Shown here piece after piece: positions 1-11,192 of a DNA stretch of 11,547 bases. The stretch's first letter is position 1. Each line of letters starts with the position of its first letter. The DNA comes from a virus (Duplodnaviria > Heunggongvirae > Uroviricota > Caudoviricetes), in IMG/VR virus record IMGVR_UViG_2529292734_000012; one strand, written 5' to 3'. Made by a program: the position numbers and the translations under genes. Under the pieces are notes generated by a model that made no database searches, was not told the origin of the DNA, and was given only the letters and a program-made list of their open reading frames with translations.

Positions 1-1422
1 CATCTTAATCCCATCGTCTGGCAACTGGTTATCAACCCAGACGAAAATGAGATGGCGCGCGACTGGCAGCTGATGTTCATCAGCGTGCCGGTTATTTTAT
101 TGCTTGAACTGGTGTTTGCGACGTGGAGCTGGCAAAAGCTGCGCAGCCTGACGCGTCGTCGGCGCTTCGCGCGCCCGCTGGCCGCATTCTTATTTATCGC
201 CTTTATCGCCTCGCATGTGGTGTATATCTGGGCCGATGCCAACTTCTATCGCCCGATCACCATGCAGCGCGCTAACCTGCCGCTTTCGTACCCGATGACG
301 GCGCGACGTTTTCTTGAGAAGCATGGTCTGCTTGATGCGCAGGAGTATCAACGCCGTCTTATTGAGCAAGGTAATCCAGACGCCGTTTCCGTTCAGTATC
401 CGTTAAGCGAACTGCGCTATCGCGATATGGGCACCGGGCAGAATGTGCTGTTGATTACTGTCGATGGCCTGAACTACTCACGCTTCGAGAAGCAGATGCC
501 TGCGCTGGCAGGTTTTGCTGAGCAAAATATTTCGTTCACGCGCCATATGAGCTCCGGCAACACTACAGACAACGGCATCTTTGGCCTGTTCTATGGCATC
601 TCGCCGAGCTATATGGACGGCATTCTGTCGACCCGTACCCCTGCGGCGTTAATTACTGCGCTTAATCAGCAAGGCTATCAGCTGGGATTATTCTCATCAG
701 ATGGCTTTACCAGCCCGCTGTATCGCCAGGCATTGTTGTCAGATTTCTCGATGCCGAGCGTACGCACCCAATCCGACGAGCAGACCGCCACGCAGTGGAT
801 CAACTGGCTGGGCCGCTACGCACAAGAAGATAACCGCTGGTTCTCGTGGGTCTCTTTCAATGGCACTAACATTGACGACAGCAATCAGCAGGCATTTGCA
901 CGGAAATATAGCCGGGCGGCAGGCAATGTCGATGACCAGATCAACCGCGTGCTCAATGCACTGCGTGATTCTGGCAAACTGGACAATACGGTGGTGATTA
1001 TCACTGCCGGTCGGGGTATTCCGCTGAGCGAAGACGAAGAAACCTTTGACTGGTCCCACGGTCATCTGCAGGTGCCATTAGTGATTCACTGGCCAGGCAC
1101 GCCGGCGCAGCGTATTAATGCTCTGACTGATCATACCGATCTGATGACGACGCTGATGCAACGCCTGCTACATGTCAGCACACCTGCCAGCGAATATTCG
1201 CAAGGTCAGGATTTGTTCAACCCTCAACGCCGTCATTACTGGGTTACTGCAGCGGATAACGATACGCTGGCAATTACCACCCCGAAAAAGACGCTGGTGC
1301 TGAACAATAACGGTAAATACCGCACTTACAACTTACGTGGTGAAAGAGTGAAAGATGAAAAACCACAGTTAAGTTTGTTATTGCAAGTGCTGACAGACGA
1401 GAAGCGTTTTATCGCTAACTGA
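1..1422 (+). CDS. yejM: Inner-membrane protein with periplasmic sulfatase-like domain (YejM/PbgA/LapC-like), 5'-truncated by the window edge; reading frame is open from base 1
   Basis: Frame 1 is open from position 1 to the stop at 1420-1422. N-terminal hydrophobic segments are followed by a sulfatase/alkaline-phosphatase-like region (LLITVDGLNYSRF). Position immediately upstream of a tRNA-Pro(GGG) gene matches the yejM-proL arrangement in E. coli. Confidence 0.8.
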   Translation, partial: HLNPIVWQLVINPDENEMARDWQLMFISVPVILLLELVFATWSWQKLRSLTRRRRFARPLAAFLFIAFIASHVVYIWADANFYRPITMQRANLPLSYPMTARRFLEKHGLLDAQEYQRRLIEQGNPDAVSVQYPLSELRYRDMGTGQNVLLITVDGLNYSRFEKQMPALAGFAEQNISFTRHMSSGNTTDNGIFGLFYGISPSYMDGILSTRTPAALITALNQQGYQLGLFSSDGFTSPLYRQALLSDFSMPSVRTQSDEQTATQWINWLGRYAQEDNRWFSWVSFNGTNIDDSNQQAFARKYSRAAGNVDDQINRVLNALRDSGKLDNTVVIITAGRGIPLSEDEETFDWSHGHLQVPLVIHWPGTPAQRINALTDHTDLMTTLMQRLLHVSTPASEYSQGQDLFNPQRRHYWVTAADNDTLAITTPKKTLVLNNNGKYRTYNLRGERVKDEKPQLSLLLQVLTDEKRFIAN

Positions 1423-1496: not shown

Positions 1497-1573
1497 CGGC
1501 ACGTAGCGCAGTCTGGTAGCGCACCGTCATGGGGTGTCGGGGGTCGGAGGTTCAAATCCTCTCGTGCCGACCA
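1497..1573 (+). tRNA. proL: tRNA-Pro (anticodon GGG), 77 nt with encoded CCA
   Basis: Sequence CGGCACGTAGCGCAG...GGTTCAAATCCTCTCGTGCCGACCA has acceptor-stem complementarity (CGGCACG/CGTGCCG), a T-loop GGTTCAAATCC and an anticodon loop AUGGGGU. It matches the E. coli proL tRNA as I recall it. Confidence 0.9.
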
Positions 1574-1610
1574 AATCGAATATCGGACAGCATCGGTAAC
1601 CTATTGAAAG

Positions 1611-1648
1611 CCCGTTAATTTACTGATTAACGGGCTTTTTGTTGTTTT
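1611..1648 (+). terminator. Rho-independent terminator downstream of tRNA-Pro
   Basis: Inverted repeat CCCGTTAAT (1611-1619) / ATTAACGGG (1626-1634) followed by CTTTTTGTTGTTTT. Confidence 0.7.
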
Positions 1649-1694
1649 CAGTCGCCGGATTGAATCGGTAAGATAGGGTTATAACCGGATTTTT

Positions 1695-1766
1695 TAGCTA
1701 CACGTTTAGCTATACGGTCCAGCGTGTAGCTAAAGCCGTATAGCTACGACCAGGCATATAGCTACC
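1695..1766. promoter_or_regulatory. Array of TAGCTA(C/T)ACG-type direct and inverted repeats upstream of the integrase gene (candidate integrase arm sites or int operator)
   Basis: tagctacacg (1695-1704), tagctatacg (1707-1716), cgtgtagcta (1723-1732, inverted), cgtatagcta (1737-1746, inverted), tagctacg (1741-1748), tagctacc (1759-1766). Confidence 0.5.
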
Positions 1767-1781
1767 GATGAGTAAAAAAAC

Positions 1782-3548: not shown

Positions 3549-3755
3549 ATGGAAGTAATCAGAAAAATTCTTACCCGTCAGGAAGTAAAAAATATTCTGC
3601 GCATCAAGGCAGACAGTTCGCTACAGGACATGATCAACGCCGGAAAATTCCCGAAAGGCTTCAAAATCGGTCTGCGCCGTGTTGGCTGGTATGAAGATGA
3701 GGTGCAGGCCTGGTTGAAAGAACGCGAGGAAGAAGCGCGCGGAACGGCTGCGTAA
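3549..3755 (+). CDS. alpA: AlpA-family phage transcriptional regulator / excisionase-like HTH protein (68 aa)
   Basis: Short MerR-like HTH protein (LTRQEVKNILRIKADSSLQDMINAGKFPKGFKIGLRRVGWYEDEVQAWL) with the conserved Trp-containing C-terminus typical of AlpA/Vis proteins. GAGGT RBS. Position just after the integrase as in P4-like and PICI elements. Confidence 0.75.
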   Translation: MEVIRKILTRQEVKNILRIKADSSLQDMINAGKFPKGFKIGLRRVGWYEDEVQAWLKEREEEARGTAA

Positions 3756-4587: not shown

Positions 4588-4623
4588 CTAACCACCAACG
4601 ATAGCGAAAGTATCGAGGTAGCT

Positions 4624-5856: not shown

Positions 5857-6156
5857 ATGAAACTTAAATATTCTGGCTTAACTGCCAGTGGCAACACTCA
5901 CCCTAAATTTACGCGCGGCGATATTTACCGCGACCAGTACGGCGGCACGGTAATGATTAAGGGCGTGGAAGAACGGCGCGTAACCTACCGCCGTGAAGGT
6001 TACGAATATGATTGCGTGATGCCTGTTTATCAGTTCCGGCGTGATTTTTCTCTGGTACAGACCGCGCCGCATAACGTGTCCACCAGCAACGCCAGGGCAC
6101 GGGCAAACATCCAGAAGCTGAAAACCATGATTAACGGATTCAGGGGTAAAAAATGA
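5857..6156 (+). CDS. Hypothetical protein (99 aa), translationally coupled to the replication ATPase
   Basis: GGAGA RBS. Stop overlaps the start of the downstream gene (ATGA at 6153-6156). Confidence 0.5.
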   Translation: MKLKYSGLTASGNTHPKFTRGDIYRDQYGGTVMIKGVEERRVTYRREGYEYDCVMPVYQFRRDFSLVQTAPHNVSTSNARARANIQKLKTMINGFRGKK

Positions 6157-7559
6157 AACTGGCACCGAACGTAAAACTGTTACCGAAAGATAAACACACT
6201 GAGGCGGTTATTTTTGCGGGTGATAATGCTCACTCCTTTGCAGAACATTACATGATTGCACAGGCCAAAAAAGCAGGCGATCCCATCCCTCCGGTTTACC
6301 TGGGCCGTTATCAGTTAAGCGAACTGGACAATTTACAGATTGTTGATGAAGGACGATACAGAGCAAAGGTCATACGCGCCGGAAACCTGGACGATATGCA
6401 GATGCTGACCATTGCCACCAAACTGGCGATCGCAGGTGTCCGGGAAGCGCGGTTACTTTCAGAGAATTTCGAACTACTGGAGGACTGGAGCGAGCAACTA
6501 CCCCGACTTAAAGAAACCTGGGAACGCGGGGAAAGTCTGGTCATGAATGGCGGAAAGCGAAAAATCACACTTCCCATCTCATGGGGTTCTGAGGGATTCG
6601 ACGCGCAGCAAAGCTACGTAATTAAGGGGCTTATTCCGGCTGAATCATTATGCAGCACCTACGGGGCCAGCGGTTCTTATAAATCGTTCCTGGCTATTTC
6701 CTGGTCGTGTCATGTTGCCACAGGTATAGCATGGGGAGGCCGCAGGGTAAGTAAGGGCGCGGTTATCTATATCGCTGGCGAAGGCAGTATGGGCGTAAAA
6801 CGCCGCGTTAAGGCGTGGGAGATAACCCACGACAAGGTGGTTACGGATTTGTGCATCGTTAACGCGCCTGTCTTCCCTGCATCGCCTGACTATGTGGAGC
6901 AGGTTATCAGGACCGCCGGATTAGTGCAAGACAGAACGGGCGAAAGGGTGCGGATGATTGTCATTGACACACTGGCCCGTTGCTTTGGTGGTCATGATGA
7001 AAATGACTCCCGCGACATGGGGGCGTTTATCCAGGGGTGTGACGCGATAAAGCAGGCCACGGGGGCCACGGTTCTGGTTGTGCATCATTCCGGCAAGGAT
7101 GAGACGAAAGGGGCGCGGGGTTCCAGTGCATTCCGTGCGGCGCTTGATGCTGAGTTCCGAATCAGTCGGGAACATTCAGAGGCTACGGCGCTGGTTGCAG
7201 CATGTACGAAGATGAAGGACGCGGAGGAGCCAAAAGAAAGCGCCTACGACCTTAAGAGCGTGGAGGTATTTACGGATCCTGAGGGTGAAGAAATCGTGTC
7301 CATGGTGGTGATTGACGTTCCCCGCGCCCCTGCTGAACTGGAGCGCATAGAGGAGGCCGGGAACAAGACGGAAAATCACACGGCTTTATGGGGTTGTATC
7401 CGGTCACGTATACAGCATGGTGATAAATGCACGATCCCGCTGCTACGTGATGACATGAAAAAGCTGGGATATGACACAAAACACCTTAAACGATGGTTAG
7501 CCAAACTGGAAAAAGACGGCGTGATTTGCGTCGATGGGGATGATGTTCACCCACTGTAA
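6153..7559 (+). CDS. Replication initiator/helicase-like P-loop ATPase (RepA/AAA_25-like RecA-fold), 468 aa
   Basis: Deviant Walker A GASGSYKS, Walker B-like MIVIDTLARCF, and VLVVHHSGKDETKGARGSSAF typical of RepA/AAA_25-type ATPases. Followed immediately by an iteron array. Confidence 0.75.
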   Translation: MKLAPNVKLLPKDKHTEAVIFAGDNAHSFAEHYMIAQAKKAGDPIPPVYLGRYQLSELDNLQIVDEGRYRAKVIRAGNLDDMQMLTIATKLAIAGVREARLLSENFELLEDWSEQLPRLKETWERGESLVMNGGKRKITLPISWGSEGFDAQQSYVIKGLIPAESLCSTYGASGSYKSFLAISWSCHVATGIAWGGRRVSKGAVIYIAGEGSMGVKRRVKAWEITHDKVVTDLCIVNAPVFPASPDYVEQVIRTAGLVQDRTGERVRMIVIDTLARCFGGHDENDSRDMGAFIQGCDAIKQATGATVLVVHHSGKDETKGARGSSAFRAALDAEFRISREHSEATALVAACTKMKDAEEPKESAYDLKSVEVFTDPEGEEIVSMVVIDVPRAPAELERIEEAGNKTENHTALWGCIRSRIQHGDKCTIPLLRDDMKKLGYDTKHLKRWLAKLEKDGVICVDGDDVHPL

Positions 7560-8704: not shown

Positions 8705-9745
8705 ATGAGTGATTTATATTCGCCAGCCATGTTAATACAGGTTGTTAATGCCGAAGATATTCAATGGCAGATTAATTCTTTATTTATAAACCTGTTTTTT
8801 AAGCGAGTCGTTACATTTGAGACGCGGGATATTGCGCTTGATATTATTGACGATCCAGACATCCCGATGGCTGCATTTTGTTCCCCTATGGTTGGTAGTA
8901 AAGTCTCACGCGATGAAGGCTACGAATCAAAAGTAATTCGCCCTGGCTATATGAAGCCAAAAAGTAGTATCGACCCAAATAAAATAGCCGTTCGTCAACC
9001 AGGCGTATCACCTGAACAATTCAATGCATATTCATCACGCAGTTTCAAAATAAAGCGAGCGTTAGTAAGACAAGCGCAGGCAATTCGTGCGCGTATTGAG
9101 TGGCTTGCTGTTCAGGCGGTTACAACGGGGAAAAATATCATTGAAGGCGATGGAATTGAACGTTATGAACTGGACTGGAATATAAAACCACAAAATATTA
9201 TCACGCAGTCCGGCGGCACGGAGTGGAGCGGTAGAGATTTATCAACATTTGATCCAAACGATGACATCGAAGAGTACGCAGAAATCAGCGAAGGTACTAC
9301 AAATATCATCGTAATGGGCCGCAACGTATGGAAAAAATACCGCGCCTTTAAAGCAGTAAAAGATTGCCTTGATACTCGACGGGGATCTAATTCCGTTCTT
9401 GAAACGGCCCTGAAAAATCTTGGGGATTCTGTAAGCTTCAAGGGTTACGTTGGCGATGTTGCTATTGTGGTATATAGCGGACGTTATACCGACGAGGACG
9501 GCAAAGAAAAATATTTCCTTGATCCTGATTTGATGGTGCTTGGCAACACATCATTACAGGGCATCGTTGCCTACGGTGGCATTCAGGATCCTGAGTTAAT
9601 CAGAATGGGGCTGACTAAAGCCGAACTTGCGCCGAAAAATTACATCGTACCAGGTGATCCGGCTATTGAATATGTGCAGACGCACAGCGCACCGCAACCA
9701 ATACCGGCCCGCATCAATCGTTTTGTTACCGTTCGCATTGGTTAA
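8705..9745 (+). CDS. Phage major capsid protein, lambda gpE family (346 aa)
   Basis: Long collinear similarity to lambda gpE as I recall it: ITQSGGTEWS, FKAVK..LDTRRGSNS.LETA, GDVAIVVYSG, MVLGNT, YGGIQD. Similar length (346 vs 341 aa). AAGAGG RBS. Confidence 0.9.
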   Translation: MSDLYSPAMLIQVVNAEDIQWQINSLFINLFFKRVVTFETRDIALDIIDDPDIPMAAFCSPMVGSKVSRDEGYESKVIRPGYMKPKSSIDPNKIAVRQPGVSPEQFNAYSSRSFKIKRALVRQAQAIRARIEWLAVQAVTTGKNIIEGDGIERYELDWNIKPQNIITQSGGTEWSGRDLSTFDPNDDIEEYAEISEGTTNIIVMGRNVWKKYRAFKAVKDCLDTRRGSNSVLETALKNLGDSVSFKGYVGDVAIVVYSGRYTDEDGKEKYFLDPDLMVLGNTSLQGIVAYGGIQDPELIRMGLTKAELAPKNYIVPGDPAIEYVQTHSAPQPIPARINRFVTVRIG

Positions 9746-9754
9746 GGGGGAGCA

Positions 9755-10096
9755 ATGGCTACTCATTACACTGAACTCATGGCTGGCACTGAAGCACTGG
9801 TTACTACGTTGGGGATATTTTCAGCTAATAAAGGGGTAATTCCTGCATTTACGCCACTGATGCAAGAAGATGCAACTGGTGCACTGGTGGTATGGGATGG
9901 AACGAGCGCAGGCAAAGCTGTTTATGTTTCCGCTGTACAAATCGATACAGCGACAAAAACGCAGGCTCAGGTTTATAAAACCGGCGTCTTAAATGTTGAT
10001 GCTCTGAACTGGCCTGAGTCTGTAACACAACTATCAGCAAAAGTTGCTGCGTTTGTTGGCTCAGGTATTTCTGTTCAGCCGCTGGCACGTGTGTGA
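9755..10096 (+). CDS. Head decoration protein, lambda gpD family (113 aa)
   Basis: AFTPLMQEDATGALVVWDGTSAGKAV...YKTGVLNVDALNWPE...AFVGSGISV parallels lambda gpD ([26 protein letters not shown]...YKSGTFRYEDVLWPE...AFAGTAISIV). Confidence 0.85.
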   Translation: MATHYTELMAGTEALVTTLGIFSANKGVIPAFTPLMQEDATGALVVWDGTSAGKAVYVSAVQIDTATKTQAQVYKTGVLNVDALNWPESVTQLSAKVAAFVGSGISVQPLARV

Positions 10097-10105
10097 GGTA
10101 CGAGA

Positions 10106-10423
10106 ATGATTGAAAGAGATAGTCAGCTACGAGAGCTATTAGATATCGATGACAAAATGAGTTTAAGCGAGCGCCTTGTTGATATGGATCAGGTAGTGGA
10201 GCTTACAACCCTTAGCCGTCGCACATTGCTAAACCTTGAGGCTCGCGGAGAGTTCCCCGAACGCGTACAGGTTACGAAAGGGCGCAAGGCATGGTATTTA
10301 AGCGAGGTTGTTGCGTGGATTAACAACATTCCGCGCGCATCAAATTATTGCCTTGTTCCCACCCCGAAAAACCTGATGCGGCGTTATGCCTCAAGATTGA
10401 ACGCGCCAGGCGTAATGCCCTGA
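10106..10423 (+). CDS. HTH DNA-binding protein (AlpA/MerR-like HTH_17 type), 105 aa
   Basis: VVELTTLSRRTLLNLEARGEFPERVQVTKGRKAWYLSEVVAWI resembles the AlpA/excisionase-type HTH. GAGGT RBS. Lies between the decoration gene and cos. Confidence 0.55.
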   Translation: MIERDSQLRELLDIDDKMSLSERLVDMDQVVELTTLSRRTLLNLEARGEFPERVQVTKGRKAWYLSEVVAWINNIPRASNYCLVPTPKNLMRRYASRLNAPGVMP

Positions 10424-10489
10424 AAGGACGCAATAAGTTGATTGGTTGATGAAATTAGGGCCCGTTCTGGCTGGCGGGTCCTTTCCGGC

Positions 10490-10545
10490 GATCCGGCAGG
10501 CTACGGGGCGGCGACCTTGCGGTTTTTCGCTATTTATGAGCTTTT
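10490..10545. other. Lambda-type cos site (cosN cohesive-end sequence GGGCGGCGACCT at 10506-10517, plus start of cosB)
   Basis: ctACGGGGCGGCGACCTtGCGGtTTTTCGCTATTTATGAg matches the lambda left-end/cosN sequence GGGCGGCGACCTCGCGGGTTTTCGCTATTTATGAAAA (from memory) with a few substitutions. Sits about 130 bp upstream of a Nu1-like gene, as in lambda. Confidence 0.7.
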
Positions 10546-10548
10546 TCA

Positions 10549-10577
10549 GGGTGGTGGTGGTGGTTTTGTTGTTTGTT
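10549..10577. repeat. Short simple-sequence repeat (GGT)5 followed by a T/G-rich (TTG)n-like tract inside the cosB-equivalent region
   Basis: GGGTGGTGGTGGTGGTTTTGTTGTTTGTT. Confidence 0.6.
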
Positions 10578-10649
10578 CTATCTCCATGAATGAAAAGGGA
10601 AGATAACACCAACACACCAACCTGAAACCTTAACTAAGTGGGGATATTG

Positions 10650-11192
10650 ATGAAATCGCACCTGATGAACAAAAAAACTATGGCGCAAAGCTGCCGCGTA
10701 AGTGCGACAGCGTTCGACAAGTGGGGAGTGACTCCCGTTGAGCGTAAAGGCCGTGAGGCGTTTTATGATGTTGCTAGCGTGATAGACAATAGGGTTAACA
10801 ATGCAATTAACCAACTTACAAACGACAAAGGCGAGATTGATGATGATGAACTTTTACGCGTAAGAATCAGATTAATGACGGCCCAGGCGGAAGCGCAGGA
10901 ACTTAAAAACGAGCGCGAACGCGGCGAGGTGATTGATACAAAGTTTTGCATCTACGCGATTTCAAAGCTGGCACAACAAATTTCTTCAATCATGGACAGC
11001 CTCCCGCTCACAATGCAAAGGCGCTTTCCCGATATAAGGCCGTATATGCTGGATGAACTAAAAAGGGAAATAGTCAAAGCATGTAACGCATGTGCAAGAC
11101 TTGACGAAAACCTGCCACAGATACTGGCTGATTACCTGATGGAAACTACCGGAAACGTGCCTGAGAAGTTGCTACAGAACAAAGGCGAGTAA
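10650..11192 (+). CDS. Terminase small subunit, lambda Nu1-like (start uncertain: 10638 GTG, 10650 ATG or 10665 ATG)
   Basis: LMTAQAEAQELKNERERGEVIDTKFCIYAISKLAQQISSIMDSLPLTMQRRFPDI parallels lambda Nu1 LTRAQADAQELKNARDSAEVVETAFCTFVLSRIAGEIASILDGLPLSVQRRFPEL. The N-terminal DNA-binding region is more divergent. Confidence 0.8.
   Translation: MKSHLMNKKTMAQSCRVSATAFDKWGVTPVERKGREAFYDVASVIDNRVNNAINQLTNDKGEIDDDELLRVRIRLMTAQAEAQELKNERERGEVIDTKFCIYAISKLAQQISSIMDSLPLTMQRRFPDIRPYMLDELKREIVKACNACARLDENLPQILADYLMETTGNVPEKLLQNKGE

Follow-up and report, generated by a model that had tools for sequence, protein, structure and literature searches.

Predicted arm-type integrase binding sites between the tRNA-Pro core and the integrase gene of a phage satellite at proL

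The window analysed here is the whole 11,547-nucleotide stretch of IMG/VR record IMGVR_UViG_2529292734_000012. It opens with yejM, which encodes DUF3413 and sulfatase domains and lies upstream of the tRNA-Pro(GGG) gene proL, as in Escherichia coli. The 3' end of the tRNA gene is followed by a hairpin terminator, a dense array of short repeats, a gene for a tyrosine integrase (Int) and a gene for a small AlpA/Vis-like protein (Table 1). An island that is 99.6% identical at attL is present in 90 E. coli genomes. In one of these, E. coli strain 504239 (L001), the island begins at the tRNA and ends ~10.6 kb downstream, just before yejO, at a degenerate version of the tRNA end, gaataCTCTCGTG--GACCAAAaatccc. 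The tRNA-Pro of the window has a T at position 1512, apparently in the D-loop, vs a C in E. coli L001 and in the K-12-like L002, and with this T it is still called by both ARAGORN and Rfam.

Table 1. Features of the window around the integration target and the integrase gene (window coordinates).
Feature	Position	Strand	Evidence and remarks
yejM	52-1422		DUF3413 and sulfatase domains
tRNA-Pro(GGG) gene proL, integration target	1497-1573	+	ARAGORN; Rfam tRNA, 56.5 bits
attL copy of the common core	1559-1575	+	17 bp, CTCTCGTGCCGACCAAA; tRNA 3' end plus 2 nt
Island hairpin terminator and T-run	1606-1645	+	Terminator scan; 15-pair stem followed by TGTTGTTTTC; inverted repeat I1
P'1 arm-type site (predicted)	1693-1704	+	TTTAGCTACACG; first half of the 26-nt repeat also found on the attR-side arm
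P'2 arm-type site (predicted)	1705-1716	+	TTTAGCTATACG; abuts P'1 with 12-bp phasing
P'3 arm-type site (predicted)	1723-1734	-	Perfect inverted copy of P'1; inverted repeat I2, 12 nt, 100% complementary
P'4 arm-type site (predicted)	1737-1748	-	CGTAGCTATACG; exact 10-mer at 1737-1746; inverted repeat I5 with P'2
P'5 arm-type site (predicted)	1755-1766	-	GGTAGCTATATG; weakest copy, one mismatch; direct repeat D3 with P'4
Tyrosine integrase, P4/CP4-like cluster, 413 aa	1782-3023	+	Phage_int_M, Phage_integrase, Arm-DNA-bind_3
AlpA/Vis-like small HTH protein	3549-3755	+	PHROG 'excisionase and transcriptional regulator'; candidate excision directionality factor

The start codon assigned to int is the one annotated by RefSeq in a near-identical island. 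The N-terminal arm-binding domain of the protein covers approximately residues 8-94 (nt 1803-2063) and matches the Pfam family Arm-DNA-bind_3 (PF13356) with an E-value of 1.9e-23. In a search of the PDB, the N-terminal 110 residues matched 3JU0 (1.3e-20) and 3JTZ, described as a 'CP4-like integrase' (1.6e-12). An arm-binding domain of the DUF4102 type characterises the IntSXT subgroup of integrases, which includes the P4 cluster (PMC8138268).

Two separate genes for AlpA/excisionase-like HTH proteins are present in the island, one after int and the other between the decoration and terminase genes (10106-10423). The head genes (window 8705-11192; L001 26613-29498) comprise only a lambda E-like major capsid protein, a D-like decoration protein and a Nu1-like small terminase, and no portal or protease gene was found in the ~10.6-kb island. 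Capsid-forming PICIs carry more head genes than this island. The same int and att module is associated with different replication genes, a RepA-type helicase in the window (6153-7559) and in L001 vs a DNA primase family protein in Z1323CEC0003 (L217 24164-25969), and the stretch from int to the replication gene differs between the window and L001.

The yejM-proL flank is matched by all 5,426 complete E. coli genomes, and in most of them the match ends at about position 1575 of the window. The core CTCTCGTGCCGACCAAA is common to attB, attL, attR and attP, and int adjoins it and is transcribed away from it. The empty site of K-12 reads ...CTCTCGTGCCGACCAAAaatccc, and the tRNA gene is followed there directly by ...CTCTCGTGCCGACCAAAaatcccaag, the tRNA end being joined straight to aaaatccc. 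The attR of related islands reads gaataCTCTCGTG(CC)GACCAAAaatccc, and the attP junction of metagenome contigs reads gaataCTCTCGTGCCGACCAAAtcgaata. Judged by these alignments, the island boundary is the tRNA 3' end, at 1575/1576, and the repeat array lies ~118 bp inside the element, measured from the core. The preliminary description of this DNA had set the boundary between the tRNA 3' end and about position 1690, with the array helping to mark it, and had suggested a comparison with an empty proL site. That comparison puts the boundary at the left limit of the interval, and the array loses its role as a boundary mark.

The longest direct repeat within the L001 island, and the longest to flank the island genes, is 26 nt, TTTTTAGCTACACGTT(T/A)AGCTATACG, with copies at L001 20119-20144 (corresponding to window 1691-1716) and at L001 30500-30525. 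Its length invites a reading in which this repeat is itself the att core and bounds a nested element, the sequence at 1576-1690 being a remnant of something else. We regard this as almost certainly wrong. A synthetic empty site built on the 26-nt repeat as core had no full-length match in the 5,426 E. coli genomes, the tRNA end of the real empty site runs directly into the flanking chromosome, and attP contigs (see below) keep both TAGCTA pairs, one on each side of the tRNA-derived core. The 26-nt repeat was rejected as a candidate core on these three grounds.

The hexamer TAGCTA occurs six times in the window, and five of the occurrences, at 1695, 1707, 1727, 1741 and 1759, are clustered within 70 bp. 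Dinucleotide shuffling of the whole window gave a mean of 1.57 and a maximum of 5 copies, so that six were reached in none of 200 shuffles, and the Poisson chance of five copies in one 70-bp stretch is <1e-8 with all possible positions allowed for. The sixth copy, at 4619, lies outside the array, and the longer motif TAGCTAYACG is not matched there even at two mismatches. Exact matches to this 10-mer are found at 1695 (+), 1707 (+), 1723-1732 (-) and 1737-1746 (-), and the sequences at 1755-1764 (-) and 1703-1712 (-) each deviate from it at one base. The match at 1703-1712 shares its palindromic core with the 1707 site, and the number of physical sites is therefore five. Written as 12-mers (TTTAGCTAYACG), the array consists of two abutting direct sites (1693-1716) followed by three inverted sites (1723-1766). 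The preliminary description had counted six TAGCTA copies ending just short of the int ATG. The cluster and its position hold, with 15 nt between the end of the array and the ATG at 1782, while the count drops by one since a single palindromic core had been read on both strands.

We interpret the five TTTAGCTAYACG sites at 1693-1766 as the P' arm-type binding sites of a ~10.6-kb phage satellite integrated at proL, and we put the probability of this reading at roughly 0.8. The case combines the enrichment over chance described above with the presence of the pair on both arms, an intact attP, a layout known from P4 and CP4-57, covariation with the N-terminal part of Int and the PF13356 domain of the integrase. 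The preliminary description had offered arm-type Int sites of attL, an int operator, or both as readings of the repeats, and the arm-site reading gains support from the far-arm pair, the attP contigs and the layout kept in homologues.

The window stops before attR, and the second arm is known from near-identical relatives and attP contigs. A search for the motif near the far end of the element, proposed earlier as a check, was positive: the 26-nt pair (P1/P2) recurs on the attR side of L001, 59 bp before the attR core and ~10.4 kb from the P' array when the island is integrated. This pair has no inverted partner and no adjoining int gene. It is invariant in seven E. coli islands with attR regions 86-100% identical, but the sequence on its island side is likewise conserved, and invariance of the pair alone is thus weak evidence. 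The 53-bp spacer between the pair and the core is variable, except for a kept match to the IHF consensus, AATCAANNNNTTR. With two sites on the P arm and five on the P' arm, in mixed orientation, the predicted arm sites total seven.

A pattern for the predicted attP junction matched two metagenome contigs and no viral contigs. In both of the matching contigs the order is P pair, IHF-like AATCAA(A/G)(T/A)GGTTA, intact CTCTCGTGCCGACCAAA, tcgaatatcgg..., hairpin terminator, P' pair, three inverted sites and int ATG. The attP map is thus seen directly and not reconstructed. One of the two, L215 (10,713 bp), holds the whole island in circularly permuted form, without chromosomal flanks, as would fit an excised circle or a concatemer. 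The intact attP in these contigs argues, as sequence evidence, for a recombination system that works. The exact pattern of the P pair had four matches among viral contigs, all of the attR version and hence uninformative on attP, and one of these contigs begins exactly at the int ATG. A looser pattern, GGACTANNTTNGGACTA, gave mostly chance matches to viral contigs, and these were discarded.

The far arm also bears on whether the array might be no more than a transcriptional operator of int, recognised by Int or an island repressor, without a role in recombination. The array does occupy the space between terminator and ATG immediately ahead of int, and its inverted arrangement is operator-like. 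An operator of int would hardly account for a near-identical pair ~10.4 kb away that has no int beside it and is brought to the core only in attP. The counterpart repeats of P4 are annotated as attP arm repeats, and elsewhere in the window bare TAGCTA recurs just once, at the poorly matching 4619 position. We consider an operator function alone improbable.

The attR core itself is located at L001 30584-30598 (alignment A1 columns 208-222). Its intact form, CTCTCGTGCCGACCA, occurs in one of the seven sampled E. coli islands, the other six being short by 1, 2 or 4 bp, and further variants occur in four IMG/VR contigs (L091-L094). Given these deletions in most of the sampled integrated copies, those copies may no longer use the arm sites, and precise excision may have been lost from many integrated copies. 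One genome matched the attL query twice and was examined for tandem islands; none were found at proL, the second copy lying elsewhere.

Conservation of the layout was assessed in 80 loci encoding relatives of the integrase of the window. In 59 of the 80 loci, the 130 bp ahead of int contain two direct sites in phase and, after them, an inverted copy, whereas each of two control regions within int gave one such case among the 80. The architecture is thus kept in homologues, and absence of the motif from homologous elements, which the preliminary description had named as grounds for dismissing its proposal, was not observed. Among the close relatives at tRNA-Pro the sites can be aligned in register, and their central bases are lineage-specific, reading TAGCTA, TAGTTA, GGACTAG or TAGGCATA. 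The motifs of the family as a whole include these as well as TTGGTACA and others.

The motif differences are paralleled in the integrase. Relatives with the GGACTAG motif (L009-L011) are 82-85% identical to the Int of the window over residues 100-413. Over residues 25-65 their identity to it is only 54-56%, vs 73-83% for relatives whose motif is TAG(C/T)TA. Likewise, identity between the integrases of L004 (motif TAGCTATAC) and L009 (motif TRGGACTAG) is 92% for the core-binding and catalytic domains and 53% for the N-terminal domain. Across these comparisons the arm motif switches together with the N-terminal arm-binding domain of Int. The mosaic pattern suggests that arm specificity is exchangeable. 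A search for an E. coli genome carrying a GGACTAG-type element, with L011 as query and the far arm as the region of interest, gave no match.

The same comparison weighs against the repeats being sites of the AlpA/Vis-like directionality factor or regulator. Phased direct repeats in att arms are common targets of directionality factors, and the island encodes two proteins of the AlpA/excisionase type, but the motif does not track AlpA. The AlpA proteins of L010 (GGACTAG) and L012 (TAGTTA) are nearly identical over ~55 aa, and AlpA homologues are 65-71% identical to the protein of the window irrespective of motif, while the motif tracks the N-terminal domain of Int. We hold an assignment of the repeats to AlpA to be highly improbable.

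The arrangement read as arm-type Int sites resembles that of several known elements. In P4, GenBank annotates an 'attP arm sequence repeat', with an abutting 12-bp direct pair on each arm and an inverted copy over the int ATG. The P4 pairs lie 53 and 112 bp from the core, vs 59 and ~118 bp here. The P4 Int has the same domain order, with an N-terminal domain that can be aligned at 38-45% identity, and its gene adjoins the core and reads away from it. The two elements differ in motif (GGGGGCA in P4, TAGCTAYACG here), in target (leuX vs proL) and in cargo (sid, delta and psu vs capsid, decoration and TerS genes). In P4 a single inverted copy lies close to the ATG and another within int, whereas the window has three inverted copies and none inside int, and the catalytic part of P4 Int is only ~32% identical to that of the window. 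CP4-57 of K-12 shows the series of core, hairpin, direct pair TTAGGCCCATTGATAGGCCCAA and inverted copy before the intA ATG, with a pair TAGGACCAACAATGGGACCAA ~64 bp inside attR and an AlpA gene downstream of int. It differs in its motifs, TAGGCCCA and TRGGACCA, the attL and attR versions being one base apart, in its target, the tmRNA gene ssrA, and in having one inverted copy, and its IntA is 57% identical in the core-binding and catalytic domains.

Lambda and KplE1 (CPS-53) share some of these features. Lambda works on the same principle: its integrase is heterobivalent, the core is flanked by arm sites on either side, and an IHF site separates arm from core. Its arm-binding domain, however, belongs to another family than the PF13356 (DUF4102-type) domain found here, and the number and orientation of its P1/P2 and P'1-P'3 sites differ from the two plus five sites of mixed orientation. 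In addition, lambda int is not beside attL in this orientation and is not autoregulated via arm sites. The N-terminal domain and the P1/P2/P'1-3 arrangement of lambda-type arm sites are both missing from the window. Those of a P4-type arm array are found in the window and its relatives: the PF13356 domain, a tRNA-end core with adjacent int, one motif on both arms as abutting 12-bp direct pairs with inverted copies beside the start of int, the far-arm pair being seen in relatives and attP contigs, and covariation of motif and domain. In KplE1, which encodes IntS and TorI, the tRNA and int are co-oriented, int lies beside attL and the P' sites fall between the tRNA and the int ATG, as in the window. 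The KplE1 motif contains TAAA, the arrangement of its sites is different and TorI sites are interleaved. Its promoter has also been mapped, with P'1 over the -10 box, whereas the window offers just a weak promoter candidate.

The position of the array raises the question of how int is expressed. The island terminator lies between the core and the arm sites, and takes the place of the native proL terminator, which ends up beyond attR. A hairpin is present at the same position in all close relatives, at tRNA-Pro and tmRNA alike, and in CP4-57. The terminator is taken to shield int from proL read-through. With read-through blocked, the promoter of int must fall within 1646-1775, half of which is taken up by the array. 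A strict sigma-70 promoter scan upstream of int found none, and a lenient scan returned a single weak candidate upstream of the array, TTTTCA-18-TAAGAT at 1645-1674, with 8 of 12 matches. If this candidate is the promoter, the array lies in the 5' leader, and Int bound there would act as a roadblock and not by promoter occlusion.

An array within the leader could also act in RNA, as a hairpin controlling the translation or stability of int. P'1 can pair perfectly with P'3 over 12 nt, and the fold of 1690-1790 has a minimum free energy of -28.2 kcal/mol (z = -2.27), a modest z-score, as five of 200 shuffled sequences fold equally well. Such complementarity is automatic when one protein site is reused in both orientations, and it is missing from the far-arm pair, which has no inverted partner. 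Direct and inverted copies are moreover unequal in number in relatives, and an Rfam search of the region matched the tRNA only. An RNA function for the inverted repeats is, in our judgement, quite improbable, and we return to sites for the integrase.

As arm sites, the repeats probably also let Int repress its own gene, a prediction made by analogy with P4 Int and KplE1 IntS and from the geometry of the locus. In elements with the order tRNA-attL-int, in which attL overlaps the int promoter, negative autoregulation was demonstrated experimentally with KplE1 IntS and with further E. coli integrases of this shape (PMC2951348). The tRNA and int of the window have the same orientation and int adjoins attL, which is the 'STI' shape of the KplE1 paradigm. 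P4 Int, too, represses its own gene according to Piazzolla 2006, as reported in PMC2951348. Int bound at the array would in the same way exert negative autoregulation on int.

The mechanism we propose for recombination follows that of a heterobivalent integrase. The catalytic and core-binding domains of Int would engage the 17-bp tRNA-derived core, and the N-terminal PF13356 domain would occupy the P' sites and the matching P1/P2 pair of the other arm, ~59 bp from the core. Bending of the DNA at the consensus site in the P arm, probably by IHF, would allow Int to bridge arm and core. The resulting intasome would be assembled for integration and, together with an AlpA/Vis-like factor, for excision. 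We infer both the binding of Int to the repeats and the role of IHF from the sequence.

The core, the five P' sites, the two P sites and the IHF-like site together make up a set of attachment-site anatomy for this satellite, which can be used in annotating the ~90 complete E. coli genomes with the island and in engineering or tracking it. The layout also provides a rule for predicting arm sites of P4/CP4-like integrases, namely two 12-bp direct sites in phase, with inverted copies after them, close upstream of int. This layout was already known from P4 and its relatives, and the current understanding of tyrosine integrases is unaltered. What is less routine is that, as read from the alignments, integrases with the same tRNA-Pro core have exchanged arm-binding domain and arm motif in a mosaic fashion. 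Identity among these integrases is 82-92% for the core-binding and catalytic domains, yet they differ in their cassettes of N-terminal domain and arm sites. One speculative and rather unlikely explanation is that swapped cassettes have been selected for orthogonal recombination and int autoregulation among satellites competing for one tRNA. If so, a resident Int would neither excise nor repress an incoming rival, and vice versa, and the TAGCTA array would represent one 'specificity allele' of a diversifying system, beyond a merely conserved site.

Two minor observations concern other sequences of the region. Three of the four ATCGGTA heptamers of the window fall in the P' arm, at 1592-1598 (+), 1664-1670 (+) and 1763-1769 (-), where ~1 is expected per window. 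ATCGG-like blocks flank the terminator on both sides at matching places in relatives, independent of the arm motif. The heptamers may be sites for a second protein, e.g. a directionality factor. Finally, the record NZ_CP148393.1 (H82), a 44.6-kb plasmid, contains a 54-nt match of 90.7% identity to the 3' part of proL, at a place without an annotated feature, and this may be an attP-like site of another element.
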